The notes below the pieces were generated by a model. That model worked only from the letters and a program-made list of their open reading frames with translations. It did no database searches and was not told the origin of the DNA. Made by a program: the position numbers and the translations under genes. Below, in pieces: positions 49,815 through 64,000 of a stretch of 64,000 nt of DNA. Location: assembly GCA_965221905.1 (NCBI GenBank), contig OZ244922.1, forward strand, positions 3,456,011-3,520,010. Direction: 5' to 3'. Positions within the stretch are counted from its first letter, which is position 1. Each line of letters opens with the position of its first letter. This DNA comes from Chloroflexota bacterium (GTDB lineage Bacteria > Chloroflexota > UBA11872 > VXOZ01).

Positions 49815-50348
49815 CTATTTTGCCGATCCGCTAGTATCATTATTCTCTGGCTGCAATCCCATAGGCAGCCCACCGCGAGCCCTATGCCAGTAGGGTTCAG
49901 CGAGCACAACGTTCTCGATCGGGCCTGGTCCTAGAGCTGCCGCCAACGCTTTGTCCCAGTATAGAAACACATCGCATTCCCACCAGATAGCAGTTGCCAG
50001 ATGGATTGCGTCCATTGGTGAAATACCATACTTCGCGCCTAATCGTTGTGCCTTTTCGCCGATCTCACGGTTAACCTCGATAACTTGAATGTATTCGTGG
50101 GCAAAGAGATTGCGCACTGCTTCAAGTTCATCCTCGTTCAACACTTCATTCTTTACCTTGATGCGTCGCACCTCTGCCAGTGTAACAGTGGAAGTGAATA
50201 CCTTGTATAGTCCACTACGTGCGTCCGTCAGAATTCCGTGCGCCACCTCCCATCGCTTCAAGCCGTCAGGGCACTCAATTACCTCTTGCTTAACGTGCGC
50301 AAAAAACACGGATGAGTCGAGGTAAGGCCTTCTGAAGGAATCAGCCAT
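49815..50348 (-). CDS. PIN-domain protein
   Basis: YLDSSVF, STVTLAEV, DAIHLATA, WD. Confidence 0.88.
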   Translation of the reverse strand: MADSFRRPYLDSSVFFAHVKQEVIECPDGLKRWEVAHGILTDARSGLYKVFTSTVTLAEVRRIKVKNEVLNEDELEAVRNLFAHEYIQVIEVNREIGEKAQRLGAKYGISPMDAIHLATAIWWECDVFLYWDKALAAALGPGPIENVVLAEPYWHRARGGLPMGLQPENNDTSGSAK

Positions 50349-51141
50349 CGCGCAGGCTCCGAATATACTCCTCAGTACTCTGGTGGCCTGTTAGGTTAGG
50401 CGCTATACCCAAGGAGTCCTCGAGTGCTGGCAGCTCATCTTCGTTCGGCAATGTGCGATATCGGTCTACGCTTACACTAAGCAGCCTTCCTTCAACGTTG
50501 TAAGATATCTGTCCGGACACGATTACGCGACGCTTGCGTTTCAAATCTTCAATGATCACTTCCTCACGTTCTTCGGGTAGCGAACACCGGACTGCTTTGT
50601 CCGTAACTGCGTGATAGACATTGAAGTAACGGCTTCCCGTGTGCAAAGAAACCAATTCAACTCTGCCCTCTACAGAGCCGATCGTCTTGTAATGAACCCC
50701 AGTGAGATTTTGGAGTGTTTCATCAGACCTCCAGGAAAGCACAGCATCTCTGTTGTGATCGGGCAGGCTTACACTAAGCCCGTCCACACCATTCCGCCCA
50801 AACGCGCGTGTCATCGCCTGCAAATCCCTGAGCATATCCAAATCATAGTCGGGTGGGGCCACTCCCTGAGTTTCAATGTGGTCTATCGCCTCAATGTACA
50901 AGGACCCCACTCGAACGCCAAAGTCCGCTTCCCCCCTAATAACGCGACTGCGCAGTTCAATTGTGCCGCTATTGCCTTCCTTGAGCCCCGCTACCATCCA
51001 CTTCATTGTGCCAATCTCTTTGCCAGACACCGTGCGATCAAGGCGCCGCAGTATCGAGTCAGACTTTTCCAGCACCAGGGTAAGTGAATCAAAAGCAATG
51101 TTGCCGAGCTCACCTTTCACTGTGAGATGCAGTCTTGCCAT
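50341..51141 (-). CDS. Hypothetical 266-aa partner of the PIN protein
   Basis: Overlaps the PIN start; GGAG RBS; VapB-like tail STEEYIRSLRD. Confidence 0.75.
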   Translation of the reverse strand: MARLHLTVKGELGNIAFDSLTLVLEKSDSILRRLDRTVSGKEIGTMKWMVAGLKEGNSGTIELRSRVIRGEADFGVRVGSLYIEAIDHIETQGVAPPDYDLDMLRDLQAMTRAFGRNGVDGLSVSLPDHNRDAVLSWRSDETLQNLTGVHYKTIGSVEGRVELVSLHTGSRYFNVYHAVTDKAVRCSLPEEREEVIIEDLKRKRRVIVSGQISYNVEGRLLSVSVDRYRTLPNEDELPALEDSLGIAPNLTGHQSTEEYIRSLRDG

Positions 51142-51328: not shown

Positions 51329-51962
51329 TTAGATGTGAGGCACGGCAAGCAGCGCATTAACGAGGTCTTCTATCTCCTGCGCGATGCCGCCGTGGTGGAG
51401 AGCGGTGCGGATGTGCTTGCGGGAGGTGACGAAGTGCATGCCCTCTTTGAGGGCAACGCCGGGGGCGACCTGCGCTGCGCGTTCGGCTGCCGCTGTGCGT
51501 TCCTGGTGTAGGGCTTCTTTGACGTTGAATAGGGAAATGGGTAACTAGAAGATGAGCTTGTCGAAGTCACGCGTGCCCCACTGGCTGCGGCTTTGCATAT
51601 GCGCCGCCCGGCTACGTGCGGTCTCACTATTCAAGATCACCGTCACGAATTGCGCCTCGCGCTTGCCGGTTGCGGTCCCATACAATTTGTGGTCCAGTAC
51701 AACATTTGAGTCTTCAACAATCGTAGAAGCCGGACGTTTGCCTGCTTTGGCATAGACGACACGCTCCTGCGGGACCGGAAACTGAGCGCTGAGCTCCCGA
51801 TTGAAGTCCCACCGCTCAGTAAGAGTCATTTTCCCGGTGCCGTGTGTGTCCCAAAGATGCTCGGCCTCGCCAAACCATGCGGCGAGACAGGAGTAGCCGT
51901 GATACTGCGGGGCCGCGGCGTCGAGCAGGCGCTTGCTGTCCGATTCCCTGGGGACTACGCCG
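51329..51962 (-). pseudogene. Divergent, disrupted copy of the C-terminal ~200 codons of the type IIG R-M gene
   Basis: Aligns with 58405-59030 (KRLLDAAA, RVVYAKAG, DHKLY, RDFDKL, GIAQEIEDLV); TAG after FDKLIF and frameshifts. Confidence 0.88.
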
Positions 51963-51963
51963 T

Positions 51964-52128
51964 TCACGACCTTTGCTGGACGATTTCGAGATCGAGGCTC
52001 GCGGTGACGTGGAGGCTGAAATCGCTCAGCCTGGAGAGGCGAGCCCGCAGCGTCCGGTTCTCCCTTCTGAGCCTGTCGGCTTCCTCCGTTGGCCGGTTCC
52101 GGTTACGGATAACATATTTCTGCGACAT
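51964..52128 (-). pseudogene. Truncated N-terminus of a probable GAF-type sensor protein
   Basis: LRRENRTLRARLSRLS..SL.VTASLDLE.V resembles a coiled coil leading into a GAF domain; ends at the R-M remnant. Confidence 0.5.
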
Positions 52129-55829: not shown

Positions 55830-56129
55830 GTGGAAGTTGAATTCAAAACAAATCAGTTGAAACTGTGTTACGAAGAGTCAGCCAAAGCGGTTCAAAAGTG
55901 GGGGCCGGTCGTTGGGCGTAAGTACGTCACCCGTATTAACGAACTCTTTGCGGTCAAGGACTTCCAAGAGGCCTACAACTTGCGTTCGATGCGCTTTCAT
56001 CCCCTGAAAGGAGGAAGAAAGGGGGAATTTTCCATCTATTTGACGGGACGGTGGCGTCTCATCGTGACCAAGGGAAAAACCGAAGAACACGTGATAATTG
56101 AGGACGTGAGTAATCATTATGGAGACTAA
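55830..56129 (+). CDS. higB: HigB/RelE-family toxin
   Basis: FHPLKG.RKGEFSI.L.G.WRLI, terminal EDVSNHY. Confidence 0.88.
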   Translation: MEVEFKTNQLKLCYEESAKAVQKWGPVVGRKYVTRINELFAVKDFQEAYNLRSMRFHPLKGGRKGEFSIYLTGRWRLIVTKGKTEEHVIIEDVSNHYGD

Positions 56130-57222
56130 ATTCTCGCGTGCATTCTCCGATATGCCGATTCCTCCAGGCGAAGTGCTAGAGGAGGAGATTGAAGCTCGCA
56201 GCATGACCCAGAAGGAACTCGCGGCAAGGCTCGGCAAGCCGGCGCAAGCCATTAACGAGATCATCAAAGGGAAAAAGGCCATCACACCGGACACTGCAAT
56301 TGGTCTAGGGAAAGTGCTTGGCATTAGCCCGCACTTCTGGAATACCCTCGAAGCCGACTATCGCATGACACTGGCGCGAAACCGAGAGCGAGAAGCAATT
56401 GCGGCGAACGTGCAATGGCTGGATGAATACCCAATTAGGGAGATGCTCAAGCGCAATTGGATAGAGGCCGGACGAGATAAGCCAAGCAGACTAGAAGCAC
56501 TGCTAAGCTTTCTAGGAGTGGCCGACGCCGAGCCTAAGGTCTACCAGAACGCTGTCGGTTTTCGCATAACGGAAGCGGCGCAACAGAGAGTGTCTATGGG
56601 CGCTCTGGCGGCCTGGCTCCGCAAAGGGGAGCTTGAAGCGCAGCAAGTGCAAACGGCCGCTTACAACGAAGATGCTTTCCGCAGGGCATTAGTAGCCATT
56701 AGGGGGATGACAGAGGATCCGCGCGAGACGTTCGTGCCGGCAGTGAGGAAACTTTGCGCTGAGGCCGGAGTAGCCTTTTGCGTGGTGCAGGAACTTCCCA
56801 AGAGCGGAGCAAATGGCGCCACGCGGTGGCTGTCTCCACAAAAGGCTCTCCTCCAAATGAGCTTCAGAAGCAAGTATGCAGACATTTTTTGGTTCTCGTT
56901 CTTCCACGAAGCCTGTCATCTATTGAACCACGGCAGGCAGCGCCGAGTAGTAATCGACGGACTAGACGCAGACCCGGATATGGCAGCAATGGAAGCCGAC
57001 GCAGACCGGTTCGCAAGAGACTTCCTCATTCCACCTAGAGAATGGAGCGAATTTCGAAATGGCGGGATTCTAACTCCAAGCTCTGTGAGGGCATTCGCGC
57101 GGTCGATCAACATTGCTCCATTCGTGGTGGTTGGAAGACTGCAGAAGGAAGAGTTGATTAGCTACAAGCAGCTCTCGTCGTTTAAGCGGCGCTACGAATG
57201 GGTGATCGATTCGCGTAGCTAA
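56119..57222 (+). CDS. higA: HigA antitoxin fused to an ImmA/IrrE-type metallopeptidase-like domain
   Basis: PPGEVL, MTQKELA.RLG, INEIIKGK.AIT, FW..LE; GATRW, FWFSFFHEACH (HExxH), E..AD.FA. Confidence 0.9.
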   Translation: METKFSRAFSDMPIPPGEVLEEEIEARSMTQKELAARLGKPAQAINEIIKGKKAITPDTAIGLGKVLGISPHFWNTLEADYRMTLARNREREAIAANVQWLDEYPIREMLKRNWIEAGRDKPSRLEALLSFLGVADAEPKVYQNAVGFRITEAAQQRVSMGALAAWLRKGELEAQQVQTAAYNEDAFRRALVAIRGMTEDPRETFVPAVRKLCAEAGVAFCVVQELPKSGANGATRWLSPQKALLQMSFRSKYADIFWFSFFHEACHLLNHGRQRRVVIDGLDADPDMAAMEADADRFARDFLIPPREWSEFRNGGILTPSSVRAFARSINIAPFVVVGRLQKEELISYKQLSSFKRRYEWVIDSRS

Positions 57223-57331
57223 CCCAAGTTGGTTTACACGACTAACCCAAGAAAGAGTCCGACCTAGTCCATGTCCAATCTCAGGCAAGCTTCAACGAGC
57301 GTTGCAGGTAATGAGAAGCAAAGGTAACTCC

Positions 57332-58363
57332 ATGAGCAGTGAAATGCCCAATCCGAATGACTATTTCGAGGAGTTTACCGGTAAACTCCTCCGCAAACTA
57401 GGGTGTCGGATTGAAAAGGATCCCCCAGTCGGCAATGGACTTGCGGACTTTCGCGCTTCCACCCCCGACGATGAGGAATTCTATGTGGAGGCTACGGTTG
57501 CGGCGCATTCGCCGTTCACCAAGAAACATACTGAAGATGATGTATGCCACAAGCTACATGCCATGTGCAGTAATCCTTATCTTTATTGGTTCACTGCATG
57601 GGCAGTTGGAGAACTTCATCAGAATCTATCAAAGCACCAGTTGATTCTAATCAAGGAATGGGTTGAAGAACTGAGCACCGTCGAACTGAGACACACTAGT
57701 CAGAGGTTTGCTTTCCCCAGTGGGACACATCCGCAAGACGCGGAAAACGCCTCCATCGAATGGGTTTTGACGATTTCGGCAACACCTCGGTCTGAAGCAC
57801 GCCGGGGCGAGCCCTCTCCACTTCTTGCAGACATTGGCCGTGTTGGATTTGTCGATTCCGCGTCACCTCTTGTTAGAGCGGCCCGCGCTAAAGTGAAGCA
57901 ACACAAGTGTATAGCGGGTCCACTTCTATTGACCTTAAACGACATGGGAGACATTCCGAGTGGGCCTCTAGACGTGGCGCTTGCACTCTTTGGCTGGGAG
58001 CAAGAGGCGGGAAATGGACGCATCCGCATAACACGGGCATCCGGCAGAAAAATGCGCAGTCTTTGGGGCACAGGTGAGAATTCCACCATCAGTGCCATCC
58101 TGTTATTCCATGAATTGACACCGAGTACTCTGCCGTATTCAAAAGTATGTTTGTATGAGAATCCGCGGGCAAGGTATCCTATTACGTCTTGGCTTAGACA
58201 ATTCTTCCCATATGCGGTTGTGGAAGAGGAGCAGGGAATTCAGTACTTGTGCTGGCATCCAGGGCCACGCCTGAGTTCTGCTTTGGGAATTCCAGCGCAA
58301 CCTCGACCTAGCGCAGAACTTGAGCGGAGGTTAAATGAAGCAACTAAGGGCTTCTTGCGATAG
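57332..58363 (+). CDS. Hypothetical protein with a PD-(D/E)xK-like N-terminal motif
   Basis: FEE....L...G..IE..P...ADF.....FYVEAT; K.KQ; ISAIL; ENPRA. Confidence 0.65.
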   Translation: MSSEMPNPNDYFEEFTGKLLRKLGCRIEKDPPVGNGLADFRASTPDDEEFYVEATVAAHSPFTKKHTEDDVCHKLHAMCSNPYLYWFTAWAVGELHQNLSKHQLILIKEWVEELSTVELRHTSQRFAFPSGTHPQDAENASIEWVLTISATPRSEARRGEPSPLLADIGRVGFVDSASPLVRAARAKVKQHKCIAGPLLLTLNDMGDIPSGPLDVALALFGWEQEAGNGRIRITRASGRKMRSLWGTGENSTISAILLFHELTPSTLPYSKVCLYENPRARYPITSWLRQFFPYAVVEEEQGIQYLCWHPGPRLSSALGIPAQPRPSAELERRLNEATKGFLR

Positions 58364-58404: not shown

Positions 58405-61400
58405 CTATGGCGCAGTAAGCAATCTTGTCACAAGATCCTCGATCTCTTGTGCAATTCCGTGGTCGTGGAGGGCGGTGCGGATGTGCTTGCGGGCGGTGAC
58501 GAAGTACGTTCCCTCTTTGAGGGGTACTTTGGCGGCGACCTGGGCGGCGCGCGCGGCTGCCGCTGCGAGTTCTTGATGCAACGGGTCATTCGCATTGAAT
58601 AACGGGATTAGCACTTCGAACATGAGCTTGTCGAAGTCCCGAGTACCCCACAGGCCGCGGCTTTGCATGTGAGCTATCCGTCTGCGTACGGCCTCGCTAT
58701 TCAAGATCGCCATCAAGTATTGTGCCTCACGATGGCCAGTTGAGGCCCAATACAACTTATGATCCACAACGGCACTAGTGTCCTCAACAAATGTGGCAGC
58801 CGGAAGAGTGCCTGCTTTGGCATAGACCACCCGCACTGACGGAATAGGAAACTGCGCGCTGAGCTTCCCAAAGTAGTCTACTTGCTCGATAAACGTCATT
58901 CGGCCTGTTCCGTGGGTATCCCAGAGGTGCTCGGCCTTGGCAAGCCAGGAGGCGAGATAGGGGTAGCCAACCTGCTGCGCGGCCGCGGCGTCGAGGAGAC
59001 GCTTACCGTCCGGATCCCAGGGAATAATGCCGGGTACGGGCTTGAGCAGCCGGTACGGGGCAACTGATTCACCCAGGTAAACCTGGCGGAGAAACTCTCT
59101 CTCCACCTGTTGCCGGAGGGCCGGCAGGCTCTTCCACGGCTCTTTCTCTTGGCGCGTGCGGCGGCTCTCCACCATGGGTGCATCCGACACACCGCCCAAC
59201 ATTCCCGATGTGGCTTCTTCTACTAAGCAGAGCATACGGGGCACGAGCGTCGCGCCTTGGCGAAACTTCTCCCGGTACGCGGAGCCGCCGGTAAGCTCAC
59301 CGCCGGTAGGCCACGGCGCGGAGCGGTGGGTTAGGTAGCGTGCCGCCTCTGCCGACGTGGCGTCGCGCCGGGGCAGCACGCCCGCATACGCCGTTACCTT
59401 CTTCGGCAGTGTGCCTCCCTCGCCGACACGTCCTATGAGCACGCACGAGGGCACGGGAAAGAGCGGCTGCACGGACTCGTCAAACGTCCAGGCCTTTCGA
59501 ATCGCGGACCGTGCGTACACTATCTCGCCTTTCCCAAAAACTCCGCTGCGGAATCCTTCATACTGTTTGCGGTGGAGCGTGGCGTAGGGCAGGACGAAAG
59601 CGATCTTGCTGTGGCGATCGGGTTCCTGCACCGCGTAGAGTTCGGCGCAGCGGGCGTAGAAGTATGCCGAGAGGTCTTGGTGCGTCGCCACGCGGCCGCC
59701 GGCCCATAGATTGCGGCGCTGGCACTCCTCCCGGAAGCGCTTCTGGATAGCATCAGACATGTAGCGGTAAGCGAGCCAGGGCGGATTGCCAATGATGACG
59801 TCGGCGCGTTGTTCCTTTGAGGAAAGCCAGACCGGACGCGCCTGATTGCGCACCACGTAGCCCCAGATATGGTCGCGCCCCGCCGCCCGCAGGTCGCAGA
59901 GGTGTTGATATGTCGCCGCGAGCATTTCCCAGTCACGCTCATTCCCGATCCGTTCTCGTTCCAACCAGGCGCGCAGATCGTCAGCCGCAGCGCCGCGTTC
60001 GCTATAGTCAAGCATCCTCGGAACGACCTGTTCAAAGCTGGCGAGGTCTGCCACGATCGAGGCAGGGAAGCGCAACTGAGGGCCGTCCGGCACTCGAATG
60101 ATTACGTCGCGTCCGGCGATAAAGCCTTCCGTATTCCACTGGAGCGAATCGCCAAGGTAGACCGGAATCGCGAGTTCATCCCGGTCTGCATTTAGACGTG
60201 CCGGGCCGAGCGCCAGCAGGTAAGTCACGCGGGCAATGAGCGCCGCCACCGGATGGATGTCCACGCCCAACACCTTGCGCGTGCACTCCGCAAGCGCGGC
60301 GGCGTTGTCACAACCGGCCCCGTCCGCCGCAGCCAGAAAATGGCGCACAGCATGGAAGAGGAACGTGCCTGACCCACAAGACGGATCGAGCACCCGTTGA
60401 TTGAGCGGATCCGTGACCACCTCACGCACCATCAGATCGGCAAGCCAGTCCGGCGTATAGTACTCGCCGAGTTGGTGGCGCTGGGCCGGATCGATTAGCG
60501 ACTCATAAAGCTCCTTTAGAACGTCATGCTCAATGTCCTCAAGGCGAAAACGGCTCGCCTGCCCAGCGATGCGATTCACCAAAGCAACACCGTCCGGTGC
60601 ATCGATAATCCAATCGAAGAAGTCGGATTCCACGGCACCGGTGATGCCCGCGTCGCGAAAGGGTTGGCCGGAGAGCAAATTAGCAGGCTGCGGCAAGGGG
60701 ATGCCCAGCGCCCGCGTCGCCATCGTCTTTGCCACAATGGTGAGATAGGTATGTTGGAAGAAGAGGTCGTCGCCTTTGACGAAGTCAGCCGAATCTACTG
60801 ACTCGCCGTAGACCATTTGCAGCAAGTCCGCCCACAACGTGCGTTTGAGTTCTACATCGGGCGTTGACTTCACTTCCCGCCACAGTCGCGCAAGTTCGGT
60901 TTGGGCAACAAAGTAGGCGAGGCTCTCGCGCCCGAGCTCCTTGCGCACGGCGTCAGGTTCGGGCGAGATTTCCGGTTGGATGGCAACTGCGGTATCAAGC
61001 CAGGCAAGAAGCGTGCCGGGATCATCAAGTGTGGGCGTATACCGAGTAAGCTCGACTACCGTCTCGCCGCGCAACTCATACGCAATGAACACCGCGCCGT
61101 CCGTAGCAATGCCAATGTAGTGCTCGCCAGTGTCCTTTTGCTTTTGGCCGATGTAGCGCGCGAGTTGCGATTCCGCGTCCGCAGATTCGGCTCGCAGATC
61201 GCGCTTGAACTCGAAAAGTGTGCGGCCAAGCAATGCGTCTGCGCGACCCCGCACCTCAGGCAGCGGCTCCTCGAAGCGGACTTGATCGCTTCTTGCCCCT
61301 AGGCCTTCCACCAGAAGCCTATAGACAAGCGTCCGTACCTTCTCGTGCCCCGGTCGCTTGAGAAGTTCGTCGACGATATGTTGCTGGCGGTCCTTATCTA

Positions 61401-61407
61401 GCGGCAT
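58405..61407 (-). CDS. Type IIG-like restriction-modification enzyme (nuclease + N6-adenine methyltransferase + TRD)
   Basis: ADALL..FEFK, GIATDG, GEYYTP, LDPSCGSGTF, GVDIHP, IGNPPW. Confidence 0.9.
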   Translation of the reverse strand: MPLDKDRQQHIVDELLKRPGHEKVRTLVYRLLVEGLGARSDQVRFEEPLPEVRGRADALLGRTLFEFKRDLRAESADAESQLARYIGQKQKDTGEHYIGIATDGAVFIAYELRGETVVELTRYTPTLDDPGTLLAWLDTAVAIQPEISPEPDAVRKELGRESLAYFVAQTELARLWREVKSTPDVELKRTLWADLLQMVYGESVDSADFVKGDDLFFQHTYLTIVAKTMATRALGIPLPQPANLLSGQPFRDAGITGAVESDFFDWIIDAPDGVALVNRIAGQASRFRLEDIEHDVLKELYESLIDPAQRHQLGEYYTPDWLADLMVREVVTDPLNQRVLDPSCGSGTFLFHAVRHFLAAADGAGCDNAAALAECTRKVLGVDIHPVAALIARVTYLLALGPARLNADRDELAIPVYLGDSLQWNTEGFIAGRDVIIRVPDGPQLRFPASIVADLASFEQVVPRMLDYSERGAAADDLRAWLERERIGNERDWEMLAATYQHLCDLRAAGRDHIWGYVVRNQARPVWLSSKEQRADVIIGNPPWLAYRYMSDAIQKRFREECQRRNLWAGGRVATHQDLSAYFYARCAELYAVQEPDRHSKIAFVLPYATLHRKQYEGFRSGVFGKGEIVYARSAIRKAWTFDESVQPLFPVPSCVLIGRVGEGGTLPKKVTAYAGVLPRRDATSAEAARYLTHRSAPWPTGGELTGGSAYREKFRQGATLVPRMLCLVEEATSGMLGGVSDAPMVESRRTRQEKEPWKSLPALRQQVEREFLRQVYLGESVAPYRLLKPVPGIIPWDPDGKRLLDAAAAQQVGYPYLASWLAKAEHLWDTHGTGRMTFIEQVDYFGKLSAQFPIPSVRVVYAKAGTLPAATFVEDTSAVVDHKLYWASTGHREAQYLMAILNSEAVRRRIAHMQSRGLWGTRDFDKLMFEVLIPLFNANDPLHQELAAAAARAAQVAAKVPLKEGTYFVTARKHIRTALHDHGIAQEIEDLVTRLLTAP

Positions 61408-61413
61408 CAGCGC

Positions 61414-62397
61414 CTACGGCAGGGTCTCGTACTCGGCTTGTTCGTTGATGGGATATGGCGGGCGTTTGCCTTGGATGACGTCGATGAGGCACTCGAAGGC
61501 CATGACCACCATGGCGTGGACGGATTCCTGGGTTACGCCGGCCACGTGGGGGAAGGGCAGAATCTTCGGGTGGTTCAAGAAAGGGTGGTCCGGCGGCGGC
61601 GGTTCCACGGAGAATACGTCGGAGGCCGCCCCGGCCAGTTGCCCCGCATCGATGGCTGCCACCAGCGCCTCTTCATCGACCAGGCTGCCACGCGCGGTAT
61701 TGACGATGAATGCAGAGGGCTTCATACGCTCCAGCAGCGCCGCATTGACGAACTTGTAGGTCTCCGGCGTGCTTGGCAGGTGGAGCGAGATGAAGTCCGC
61801 CTCCGCGAAGATCTCTTCGGGCTCCGCGTACGTGACACCGAGGTCCGCCGCCGCCTCTTCGTCCCACATCACGTCATACGCGAGCACCCGCATATCAAAG
61901 CCGCTCGCCCGACGCGCCACCGACTTGCCGATGCGGCCGAGACCCAAGATGCCCAGCGTCTTGTTGCACACGTCCACCCCTTGAATGCGGTGGAACCCGC
62001 CGTCGCGGGCGATTGCCGCATGTTCCACGACCTGGCGCGCCAGTGCTAGAATCATCGCCATCGCATAGTCGGCAACCGTATCGTTGTTCGCCCCGGGCGT
62101 GATGGTTATCCAGACGCCGTGCCTGGTGGCGGCTTCGATGTCGATCTGGTCGTAGCCCACGCCGACGCGCGCCACGATCTTAAGCTGCGGATGGGCGGCG
62201 AAGACGCGCTCGGTGAAATGGTCCGATCCGGCGACGAAGGCCTCGACGCCGTCTAGATTATCGATTAACTCTTGCTCGGTAAGCGGGCGAAACACGTCGA
62301 GCGGTGGAGCGAGCTCAACGCCGGCATTGCGTAGTGTGTCCCAATGCGGACCGGGAAGATCAAGAATAGAACGTGCGCCGATGAATACTTTTGCCAC
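61414..62397 (-). CDS. D-2-hydroxyacid dehydrogenase (phosphoglycerate dehydrogenase-like)
   Basis: RVGVGYD, GLGRIG, NTARG, DVFSVEP, PHVAG. Confidence 0.92.
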   Translation of the reverse strand: MAKVFIGARSILDLPGPHWDTLRNAGVELAPPLDVFRPLTEQELIDNLDGVEAFVAGSDHFTERVFAAHPQLKIVARVGVGYDQIDIEAATRHGVWITITPGANNDTVADYAMAMILALARQVVEHAAIARDGGFHRIQGVDVCNKTLGILGLGRIGKSVARRASGFDMRVLAYDVMWDEEAAADLGVTYAEPEEIFAEADFISLHLPSTPETYKFVNAALLERMKPSAFIVNTARGSLVDEEALVAAIDAGQLAGAASDVFSVEPPPPDHPFLNHPKILPFPHVAGVTQESVHAMVVMAFECLIDVIQGKRPPYPINEQAEYETLP

Positions 62398-62771
62398 CGG
62401 GTTCCTACCTTTCTCGTTAGCAGCGTCTCAATGCAAAGCTTCTCTATTGTCGGCTATGGCGCAGCCCCACGCCTACAGGCGCGGCGAAACGCAAAGACAA
62501 TTGTAAGCACTCGTTTGATTGCTTGGATTCCAAAGCAGTCATCGAGCGCGGAATCGAATCTTCGCCGCCGCGAAGGCTTGCCCCCGATTTAAAGTGCCCT
62601 CGCACTTCGCTCCATCGGGACAGCGCTCAGCCGGCAACGCACAGCACCCGCGAGTCCGGAGTGAGTTGACGTTTCGCAAAGCAACATAGTACGGTCATAT
62701 TTGCGGCATGCATACGTACGGTTCTCCCCAATGATACACGCGCTCAGTGCGCAGCGTTTAGGATACATAGA

Positions 62772-63245
62772 ATGAGCACACCGGAATCAGAAAATAAGCC
62801 AAGGCGCAAGAAGAAGCGAGAGGTGCGTTACGGAGAAGAAGCGATTGATTCCGTGGAAATTCGCTACTTCCCCAATCCTGAACCCAAGCGGGATTACTAC
62901 GTGCAGATTCGTCTGCCGGAATTGACGTTTAAAGACCCGGTTTCCGGTTACCCTGATTTCGCGGTCGCTACAATGGTGTACGTGCCCGACGCGCGTATTG
63001 TGGACCTCAAGACGCTCAAGCTCTACTTCAATAGCTTTCGCGACAAGTACTATTCCCACGAACGTATCACGAACGAGCTCTTCGACGAGTTGATAGCAGG
63101 ATTACAGCCGCGCGGCGCGCTGCTCATGATGGAGTTCAACCCGCGCGGCAACGTCTCGACGCGCGTCATCAGCACCACAGACGAAGTCTTTCTCGAGCGC
63201 GCGCAGCACGTTCTCGAGATGCCGGTGACGCGGCCGGCTTTCTAA
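62772..63245 (+). CDS. QueF-like T-fold protein with the catalytic Cys replaced by Asp
   Basis: PELTFKDPVSGYPDFA, VDLKTLKLY.NSFR, SHE, FNPRGN. Confidence 0.85.
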   Translation: MSTPESENKPRRKKKREVRYGEEAIDSVEIRYFPNPEPKRDYYVQIRLPELTFKDPVSGYPDFAVATMVYVPDARIVDLKTLKLYFNSFRDKYYSHERITNELFDELIAGLQPRGALLMMEFNPRGNVSTRVISTTDEVFLERAQHVLEMPVTRPAF

Positions 63246-63413
63246 ATCGGCGCAGCTTCTATGCGGTCGTAGCTCTCCAGCCTGGCAGTCTTCCGAATCA
63301 CATTGATTTGAGACCGTGCCGCAGCATTTGCACCGTGCCGACCGGAGGGATGGCCCGCCAAGCTTCACAACTCGGCATAGAACCGAATCGACTCAGCTAC
63401 TTTGAGCGGTAGC

Positions 63414-63451
63414 TTGCGGTAGCCAGGCGGAAGAATACCTGGCTACCGCAA
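63414..63451. repeat. Strong hairpin (REP-like or terminator)
   Basis: TTGCGGTAGCCAGG ... CCTGGCTACCGCAA, a 14-bp perfect stem. Confidence 0.55.
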
Positions 63452-63763
63452 TCGCTTCCGCCGACTCCCAAACAATAAGGAGCTTACCGACGCCCCACAG
63501 CAGCGGGAGGCCACACTTTAAGGGAAGGCCGTCTCGCCGCTGAAGCTTCGCGGCGGTTTCAGCCCGGTAGCTTTCGGAGCAGGATTTTAGAGGTCACCGC
63601 GAAATATCCCGGCCTCTTCGCGAGGACTCTGAGGGAATCAGAGAAACAGTCCCGCAGCAGCGACCTTAGTAACAGTGGCCTGTCAAGCTTCTTCGTCTAC
63701 TCATTTCGCAGAATTAGTCTGTGTCAATAGGCTCAATTATGTCATTATGGGCTATTTCAGGGG

Positions 63764-63872
63764 TTGACAACTACATACCACAGGATACACTCAGTTTTCT
63801 AGCGGAATCTTGTCACTTTTACTGCTGAATTTGGGCTTTGTCCTTGACAGGTATTAATGCTTTCCCCATAAT
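63764..63872 (+). promoter_or_regulatory. Two tandem sigma70-type promoters
   Basis: TTGACA-16-TACACT (63764) and TTGACA-17-CATAAT (63844). Confidence 0.55.
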
Positions 63873-63988
63873 GGCAGCAGCACCACAACCGTGGGTATCA
63901 ACAATCGTGGTGAGCAGTAAAGTATCTTTAGGTAGCGTTCGGTGAAGGGGCGTACCGAACCCGAACGGATCTTCAGGAGGAGGGATCA

Positions 63989-64000
63989 ATGCGTATTACC
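63989..64000 (+). CDS. Start of an unidentified gene (MRIT...) running off the window
   Basis: GGAGG RBS followed by ATG, downstream of the promoters. Confidence 0.5.

Follow-up and report, generated by a model that had tools for sequence, protein, structure and literature searches.

The mechanism of QueF rests on one cysteine, and QueF is to our knowledge the only known biological nitrile reductase. In the passages of the 2026 review PMC13740343 that assign roles to residues, Cys55 acts as nucleophile and Asp62 as proton donor; N1 and N2 of the base are bound by Glu97, O6 by the backbone of His96, N2 and N3 by Val77 and Ser79, and N9 by Glu78, and Phe33, Phe95 and Ile130 stack on the base. 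The oxidation-prone Cys55 is guarded by a disulfide with Cys99 or Cys53, according to the relevant passage of PMC5372742. QueF-L, the archaeosine synthase of Crenarchaeota (5JYX/5K0P), is a QueF-derived T-fold paralogue with a retained deazaguanine pocket and changed chemistry: in the relevant parts of PMC5485725 and PMC10516641, its Cys thioimide is attacked by ammonia, the substrate is preQ0 in tRNA, and there is no reduction by reduced nicotinamide adenine dinucleotide phosphate (NADPH). DpdL is a phage QueD paralogue with Leu at the place of the catalytic Cys, and it is proposed to be a 7-carboxy-7-deazaguanine (CDG) decarboxylase in the part of PMC10516641 that deals with it. Here we describe a QueF homologue in which aspartate stands at position 55 (hereafter the Asp paralogue). 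Its gene lies in the window, by which we mean the stretch of 64,000 nucleotides that was analysed; this is the last 64 kb (C1:3456011-3520010) of the single 3.52-Mb contig (C1; OZ244922.1) that makes up the 99.6% complete genome of a Chloroflexota bacterium (GCA_965221905.1). The protein is a genuine and conserved variant, probably expressed, in which a known fold carries a changed catalytic centre; its distribution is narrow, and, judged from its sequence, it must do something other than the textbook QueF reaction.

The gene is an intact open reading frame (ORF) on the + strand, which starts with ATG, has AGGA 9 nt upstream of the start codon and encodes a unimodular QueF homologue of 157 amino acids. 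Its features are as follows.

62772 to 63245, + strand: coding sequence of the cysteine-free QueF paralogue (157 amino acids, stop codon included in the coordinates), placed by the ORF, hidden Markov models (HMMs), alignment and a structure model.
62796 to 62828, + strand: polybasic N-terminal tail KPRRKKKREVR, residues 9-19, predicted to be disordered.
62934 to 62936, + strand: codon GAC of Asp55, at the position of the thioimide-forming Cys55 in the alignment.
62955 to 62957, + strand: Asp62, the retained general acid of QueF in the alignment (role from the passages of PMC13740343 cited above).
63003 to 63026, + strand: altered QueF (NADPH) motif D78-L-K-T-L-K-L-Y85 (motif as defined in section 3.4 of PMC5372742).
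63054 to 63065, + strand: S95-H96-E97-R98, with the base-anchoring His and Glu retained and Arg98 as a subfamily signature (alignment and trimer model).

The initial annotation of this DNA, made from its letters alone, had reported Asp in place of the catalytic Cys in a protein without any cysteine, an altered QueF motif, and retained PDF Asp and SHE Glu residues. Each of these readings held when the protein was aligned with known QueF. The best match among solved structures in the HMMER (phmmer) search was B. subtilis QueF (4f8b, E 7.6e-19), and the alignment places Asp55 on Cys55 of 4f8b; the residue numbering of the two proteins coincides by chance. The segment reads E50-L-T-F-K-D55-P-V-S-G-Y-P-D62-F-A, its codon 62934-62936 (GAC) is two substitutions away from TGC, as had been stated, and none of the 157 residues is cysteine. 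The altered motif reads V77-D78-L-K-T-L-K-L-Y85, in which D78 is encoded by GAC at 63003-63005, and both Asp62 and Glu97 are present.

The Asp paralogue scored 80.6 bits against the Pfam QueF family PF14489 (cut-off 27.3) and 112.3 bits against NCBIfam TIGR03139, the equivalog model of unimodular preQ1 synthase (cut-off 86.9), and public records label it preQ(1) synthase. The databases give it this name because the HMMs place no weight on the catalytic residue. In section 3.4 of PMC5372742, QueF is defined by Cys55, Asp62, Glu97 and a motif that includes Glu78, E(S/L)K(S/A)hK(L/Y)(Y/F/W), and sequences that lack any of these are considered non-QueF. Two of the four features are found in the Asp paralogue (Asp62 and Glu97) and two are missing (Cys55 and the Glu78 motif); within the motif, Asp at 78 and Thr at 81, where the definition has Ser or Ala, are the mismatches, and Lys80, Lys83 and Tyr85 fit. 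Therefore, the Asp paralogue should not be filed as QueF. This is a clear class of annotation error, in which curated HMMs and public records say preQ(1) synthase and the specialists' definition excludes the protein.

To see how far the remainder of the active site has changed, alignment columns conserved in at least 80% of 143 Cys forms were compared with 13 proteins of the Asp clade (the Asp paralogue and 12 close relatives). Only L30I, F51L, C55D, E78D and I103L distinguish the Asp clade at these columns. Phe33, Asn35, Arg40, Tyr42, Pro49, Glu50, Thr52, Pro56, Gly59, Pro61, Asp62, Phe63, Tyr70, Pro72, Leu79, Lys80, Leu82, Lys83, Tyr85, Arg90, Glu97, Asn101, Pro113, Arg125 and Gly126 are kept, with Lys80 replaced by Arg in two of the 13 proteins. 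His96, which lies below the threshold in the Cys forms (74%), is kept as well. Column 78 is Glu in 99% of the Cys forms and Asp in 13 of 13 Asp-clade proteins; column 97 is Glu throughout both groups (100% and 13 of 13), and the PDF Asp62 is invariant in the alignment. Because Glu97, the His96 backbone, Val77 and Phe33 are retained, the apparatus that holds the ring is intact. Of the two polar residues that have changed, the one at position 55 would face the C7 substituent and the one at position 78 would face N9. The back-door positions are Ile99 and Phe53. Arg98, which occurs in only 2% of Cys forms, is a signature of the Asp clade together with one distant protein, P0100, and Ser at position 95, where Phe95 has changed, is also present in 22% of Cys forms. 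The Asp paralogue resembles B. subtilis QueF in fold, in length class and in the type of predicted inter-subunit interface, and shares with it Asp62, His96, Glu97, Phe33, Val77, Lys80, Lys83, Tyr85, Arg90, Asn101, Arg125 and Gly126. It differs in having Asp55, Asp78, Leu51 and no Cys, including at positions 53 and 99, in the Arg98, Tyr93 and Met120 signature, in a polybasic tail and in coexisting with a true QueF.

The initial annotation had also proposed an intact T-fold protein, and the predicted structure agrees. An AlphaFold2 model built from 98 sequences had a mean predicted local distance difference test (pLDDT) score of 87.5 and a predicted template-modelling (pTM) score of 0.76; only residues 1-4 fell below 50, and residues 1-20 lay at 50-67, so that the tail is predicted to be disordered. 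The best Foldseek matches were the chains of B. subtilis QueF (4f8b, E 1.4e-12, TM 0.68-0.78), followed by FolE, bimodular QueF and QueF-L. A homo-oligomer model of three copies gave an interface score (ipSAE) of 0.76, against 0.00 for the best of three controls; of proteins with solved structures, 20 of 30 that are pairs of one chain reached the mark used for this score, as did 1 of 23 that are single chains. The runs agreed in at least 87% of contacts, with a partner pLDDT of at least 84. In the model, residues 76, 79 and 83 of one copy lie against 95 and 97-98 of the next, and residues 97-98 sit at the predicted interface, where they face residues 35-37, 72 and 76 of the neighbour. An interface of this kind would be expected around the pocket that unimodular QueF forms between subunits, a likeness that does not speak to binding. 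Since the B. subtilis QueF decamer has already been solved, the trimer model may have passed through likeness or memory.

QueF-L and FolE were considered as identities of the Asp paralogue and rejected. QueF-L is structurally alike (Foldseek E 2.4e-6, TM to target 0.82-0.90); however, the Asp paralogue lacks the Cys and keeps the lysines of the NADPH motif, and its sequence match to 5jyx has an E-value of only 0.4. For FolE (GTP cyclohydrolase I), whose zinc ligands are Cys and His, the PF01227 score was 19.5 bits against a cut-off of 27, and the Asp paralogue has no Cys.

These matches bear on the idea that something other than a queuosine precursor is bound. The pocket might hold a pterin or guanine derivative, or Asp55, Asp62 and His96 might form a metal site that hydrolyses preQ0 or 7-amido-7-deazaguanine (ADG), by hydrolytic chemistry such as nitrile or amide hydrolysis. 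The conserved Glu of T-fold pockets anchors any 2-amino-4-oxopyrimidine, the FolE family is matched weakly (19.5 bits; Foldseek FolE at E 1e-7), Phe95 and Glu78 are changed, and DpdL, as described in part of PMC10516641, is a precedent for a QueD paralogue without its catalytic Cys. DpdL is like the Asp paralogue in being a T-fold paralogue from the queuosine pathway with a replaced catalytic Cys and a proposed new 7-deazaguanine reaction; it differs in belonging to the PTPS/QueD family and in being encoded by phages within a DNA-modification cluster, and its activity itself is only proposed. We consider a different ligand improbable, because the FolE match is below the cut-off, the zinc ligands of FolE are absent, Ser95 also occurs in 22% of Cys forms, and the neighbourhood gives no pointer to folate or pterin metabolism.

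The substitution is rare. In an alignment of the Asp paralogue and 161 fetched homologues, the Cys55 column contained C in 143 sequences, D in 14, G in three, R in one, N in one and a gap in one. The 14 D sequences were the Asp paralogue, its 12 close relatives (65-90% identical) and P0100; the three G sequences resemble, in our reading, the N-terminal modules of bimodular QueF. A further profile search brought the number of fetched proteins to 268, of which 245 had Cys, 13 had Asp, three had another residue and seven lacked the motif. When 1.84 billion cluster representatives were searched in full with HMMER, 2191 relatives were obtained at E <=0.001; among these, the cluster of the Asp paralogue itself (1e-86) was followed by a Cys form at 2.7e-33 and 50% identity. 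A search for homologues with the Asp motif had been suggested by the initial annotation. One genome from each of 185,579 prokaryote species was scanned with degenerate codons for PE.T..DP..G.PDF; the Asp motif was found only in the lineage of this genus, on 15 contigs, all of them from Chloroflexota/Chloroflexi metagenome-assembled genomes. A scan of metagenome contigs from the Joint Genome Institute (JGI) for D..SGYPD[FL]...SHER gave one contig, which belongs to the Asp clade and carries the same neighbour gene. A profile made from the Asp clade and P0100 and run against 5.8 billion proteins revealed no family beyond the genus and P0100. Among 401 sampled Chloroflexota genomes, 129 had a match at E <=1e-20 (a tally that includes five genomes flagged as unpublished, on which nothing else in this analysis depends), and identity above 51% to the Asp paralogue occurred only in this genus. 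In runs labelled sponge metagenome, only 0.05-0.06 of the words were present. A phage origin was considered and rejected; the best phage matches were below 40% identity. Thus, apart from the distant P0100, the Asp paralogue appears to be confined to one uncultured Chloroflexota lineage, a single genus.

P0100 is a metagenomic protein of 165 amino acids encoded on a 13-kb contig, 32-36% identical to the Asp clade. It has Asp55, Arg98, Tyr93, Met120, Ile30, SGYPD and SHER in common with the Asp clade, and is the only distant protein found to do so; it keeps Glu78, has Phe in place of Pro56 and possesses a longer C-terminus. This likeness suggests that the Asp55/Arg98 subfamily may be older than the genus. 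In a tree made by a quick method from 92 hand-picked and trimmed rows and 137 columns (6 of 17 Asp orthologues, P0012, P0100, 6 of 14 Cys copies, 21 Chloroflexota loci and 57 database proteins), in which many forks remained open, the Cys-type QueF of the genus fell in a starred clade with QueFs of the same class (Shimodaira-Hasegawa approximate likelihood-ratio test, SH-aLRT, 96). The Asp clade (SH-aLRT 97) grouped with P0100 (91) on branches of 0.76 and 0.83, and its attachment was left unresolved. Because this branch is long and its attachment open, duplication and transfer are not distinguishable. The long stem branch followed by a tight crown is the pattern of neofunctionalisation.

The order to which this genome belongs is represented by 17 species genomes of one genus. 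The Asp paralogue is present without internal stops in all 17, the motif ELTFKDPVSGYPD is identical in all 17, and the codon for Asp55 is GAC in 16 and GAT in one. Over a core of 139 codons, the ratio of non-synonymous to synonymous substitution rates (dN/dS) had a median of 0.048 and a maximum of 0.096 at a median dS of 0.88 (135 of 136 pairs were usable). In contrast, the Cys-type QueF of the same genomes had a median of 0.162 (91 pairs), approximately three times that of the Asp paralogue. Over its full length, the Asp paralogue had a median of 0.079, lower than any of the other 11 gene families at the locus: 0.101 for ribosomal protein L10 and 0.087-0.274 for the remaining ten. Thus, the Asp paralogue is under strong purifying selection and is more conserved than the Cys-type QueF of the same cells.

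RNA libraries cover the gene as well. Contigs from four metatranscriptomic libraries of two studies span 62729-63279 at 95-99% identity, with a word depth of approximately 2-5 over the Asp paralogue and approximately 4-9 over most of the neighbouring dehydrogenase gene, and transcription is indicated but not proven. The initial annotation had named a substitution unique to this sequence and under relaxed selection as one finding that would overturn its interpretation, and the conservation in 17 of 17 species with a core dN/dS of 0.048 excludes this. A decaying or dead gene copy would explain the loss of an essential nucleophile; however, with intact copies in all 17 genomes, a dN/dS of 0.048 at a dS of 0.88, a conserved Asp codon and RNA-library contigs, the probability of decay is negligible, and this candidate was rejected on the intact copies and the dN/dS value.

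It had further been advised that a canonical queF be sought outside the window, and one was found. This second QueF homologue (C1:127339-127821) has the canonical motifs EFTAVCPWTGLPD, ELKSLKYY and QEH, and adjoins, within C1:127339-128900, a gene for a Vut_1/YhhQ-type transporter on the opposite strand. The Asp paralogue is approximately 30% identical to the Cys-type QueF of the same genomes. No other que gene was found in the window, in agreement with the initial annotation: the families searched for map elsewhere in the 3.52-Mb genome, with TGT at 1.19 Mb, QueG at 1.84 Mb and QueA at 2.52 Mb. QueH was searched for in the genome and is absent, PTPS/QueD gave no match, and the only QueC-like match covers 41 residues at 23 bits. 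Because QueD and a real QueC are missing at 99.6% completeness, queuosine would be made from salvaged or imported preQ0 or preQ1. The Cys-type copy is kept in 16 of the 17 genomes, the exception being 69% complete. Since both copies are kept, they appear to be non-redundant.

This bears on the possibility that the Asp paralogue is a preQ0 reductase independent of Cys, an oxidation-proof isozyme in which hydride would be transferred directly to an acid-activated nitrile or the reaction would pass through a transient aspartyl imidate. We know of no precedent for enzymatic attack of a carboxylate on a nitrile, which weighs against such a mechanism. The idea would explain why the oxidation-prone Cys55, the back-door positions 53 and 99 and every other Cys have been dropped, all other QueF features are kept, and the NCBIfam score is above the preQ1 synthase cut-off. 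In one passage of PMC13740343, E. coli C190A and C190S are reported to retain the conversion of preQ0 to preQ1, with the covalent intermediate bypassed; however, elsewhere in the same paper, and in the B. subtilis data, replacement of Cys by Ala or Ser abolishes activity completely. Because these passages disagree on E. coli C190A/S, the literature on Cys mutants is not fully consistent. Moreover, the Cys-type QueF is under purifying selection in 16 of 17 genomes, so that the copies are not redundant, and Asp is found only in this lineage and P0100 among 268 homologues, which is odd for a generally useful solution. We therefore regard a second preQ0 reductase as unlikely.

The tail and the surface of the Asp paralogue bring in another possibility. 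In 12 of 12 Asp-clade proteins that have the tail, the last 20 tail residues contain seven or eight Lys and Arg; in the Cys forms, the median is two (n=119), and 8 of 119 have six or more. Nearly the whole surface of the Asp paralogue is very strongly conserved. A conserved surface with a clade-specific tail is typical of proteins with macromolecular partners, and this would suit a non-catalytic binder (pseudoenzyme) that serves inside the cell as a trap, store or chaperone for a scarce salvaged precursor, or as a regulator. In such a protein, Asp55 and Asp62 would clamp the protonated aminomethyl group of preQ1, or another deazaguanine would be held, and the tail would anchor the complex either on RNA or on the membrane close to the transporter. 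The ring-anchoring residues have all stayed and the nucleophile has gone; the organism relies on salvage; and, in the mutant data of PMC13740343 in which B. subtilis C55A/S and E. coli C190A/S are inactive, C190A/S still bind preQ0 non-covalently. However, Lys80, Lys83, Tyr85 and Arg125 of the NADPH motif are still under selection, which simple binding does not require, and the gene context indicates no partner. A pure binder is in our view somewhat unlikely.

The reading that we favour, as a possible rather than a probable one, is that the Asp paralogue is a neofunctionalised, NADPH-dependent 7-deazaguanine enzyme, derived from a unimodular QueF and independent of a thioimide. With the thiol nucleophile lost, no thioimide can form. 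NADPH is probably still used, because the motif lysines and Arg125 have stayed fixed over the divergence from the Cys forms (45-50% identity). The protein would assemble into a decamer-like particle, as in B. subtilis QueF, with the pocket formed between neighbouring subunits, and would bind a 7-substituted 7-deazaguanine together with NADPH. The carboxylates of Asp55 and Asp62 would face the C7 substituent and would suit a positively charged group. Thus, a likely precursor would be positively charged and would carry a C7 carbon that needs no covalent activation. One concrete substrate would be the archaeosine base (7-formamidino-7-deazaguanine), whose amidine is the nitrogen analogue of the thioimide: hydride would be added, ammonia would leave, and a second hydride transfer would yield preQ1. 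Asp55 would assume the role of the thioimide sulfur by binding and protonating the leaving amino group. Alternatively, a related reaction might take place on preQ1 or on an imine. The product would provide a second entry to preQ1 for a salvage-dependent cell, beside YhhQ and the Cys-type QueF, and the clade-specific polybasic tail might tether the decamer to a polyanion such as RNA or to a membrane. In this specific form, as a Cys-independent NADPH reductase that converts the free archaeosine base, or another C7 substituent already at the imidate oxidation level, to preQ1, and hence a new enzyme class within the QueF T-fold, the proposal is a long shot.

Several observations weigh against the favoured enzyme. 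The substrate proposed for it is purely our inference, and no paper on archaeosine-base salvage was found in a literature search of limited scope. Lys80, Lys83 and Arg125 could have been kept for structural reasons. Since Glu78, the N9 contact, is shortened to Asp, the ligand may take another position in the pocket, or may be something other than a free base. The polybasic tail and the near-invariant surface would be explained no less well by a macromolecular partner than by a small-molecule enzyme. The conserved neighbours (a dehydrogenase, two proteins without a Pfam family and rplJ) show no link to queuosine, and no genes of the archaeosine or 7-deazaguanine-DNA pathways were found near the Asp paralogue. 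An Rfam scan of 61000-64000 at E <=1 gave only two matches at chance level and neither a preQ1 riboswitch nor any other. Finally, the RNA contigs are assembled sequences from close relatives of the strain, and such libraries can hold DNA.

The surroundings of the gene are conserved. In all 11 related genomes that were read, the order is a divergent D-2-hydroxyacid dehydrogenase gene, the Asp paralogue, a spacer of approximately 0.8 kb and two genes for unknown proteins, followed by rplJ in 7 of 11. The dehydrogenase was clustered as a neighbour in 7 of 11 genomes, and is also the neighbour in the locus on the JGI contig (L091); in the other four, the neighbour cluster (c18), judged from one member, is an antisense ORF of the dehydrogenase gene. 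Two further features belong here.

61414 to 62397, - strand: D-isomer 2-hydroxyacid dehydrogenase, the divergent conserved neighbour (Pfam 2-Hacid_dh_C, E 6.6e-60).
62705 to 62735, no strand assigned: possible divergent promoter region of the Asp paralogue and the 2-hydroxyacid dehydrogenase, weakly hinted at by the ends of RNA-library contigs.

Contigs over the Asp paralogue start at 62734 (library X15) and 62729 (library X17), from two studies; in X15, X16 and X18, contigs over the dehydrogenase side stop at 62705-62715. This gives a weak hint of back-to-back promoters between the two genes; a sigma-70 consensus was not found upstream of the Asp paralogue in the 62705-62735 region. On the dehydrogenase side, contigs covering 62398-62715, the stretch of approximately 310 nt that precedes the start codon, are continuous with the gene (X15 record 3 and X17 record 15), which suggests a long 5′ leader of the dehydrogenase mRNA; Rfam gave no family matching this segment. 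At the locus of the Cys-type QueF and at the start of the genome, Rfam likewise found nothing. The contigs gave no support for transcription of the Asp paralogue together with the genes downstream: between 63314 and 63574, there was no contig cover in any of the four runs, which is to be read as absence of cover only.

Other features of the window were also recorded. A near-consensus sigma-70 promoter, TTGACA-17-CATAAT, lies at 63844-63872, and downstream of it RNA-library contigs begin at approximately 63890-63899 in four runs. The word depth of these contigs is 250-2100, compared with approximately 2-9 over the neighbouring genes. One contig of 2490 nt extends approximately 2.4 kb past the end of the window (L092:1-2439; C1:66-980, 1141-2439). 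It covers genes for two paralogous proteins of 304 and 432 amino acids. These proteins match no Pfam family, are kept in 11 of 11 genomes and resemble unknown secreted or membrane proteins with very high expression.

Further upstream, an N6-adenine methylase of the Eco57I/MmeI type (1000 amino acids) lies beside a helix-turn-helix (HTH)-IrrE protein and a 353-amino-acid protein of no known family; the coordinates of this region are 58405-61407 (-), 56119-58363 (+) and 51545-51967 (-). Of 11 related loci, 5 contain the methylase. Its residues 792-929 share 64% identity with a 139-amino-acid ORF at 51545-51964, which is probably a remnant of a second methylase copy. A PIN-domain protein (177 amino acids, Pfam E 2.9e-12) is encoded directly downstream of a 266-amino-acid protein without a family (49815-51141, -). 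This pair occurs in a related form at two other loci (clusters c26 and c27) and is possibly a toxin-antitoxin-like pair.

A literature search of limited scope found no paper that describes a Cys-to-Asp QueF. That such a protein is under tighter conservation than the true QueF beside it implies a function, not yet described, that involves the 7-deazaguanine scaffold. This function could be a new step of salvage or processing, or a thiol-free route of interest for biocatalysis. If the archaeosine-base proposal were true, an archaeal or phage deazaguanine would for the first time be seen to be salvaged into bacterial queuosine, and nitrogen would stand in for sulfur in a covalent intermediate.

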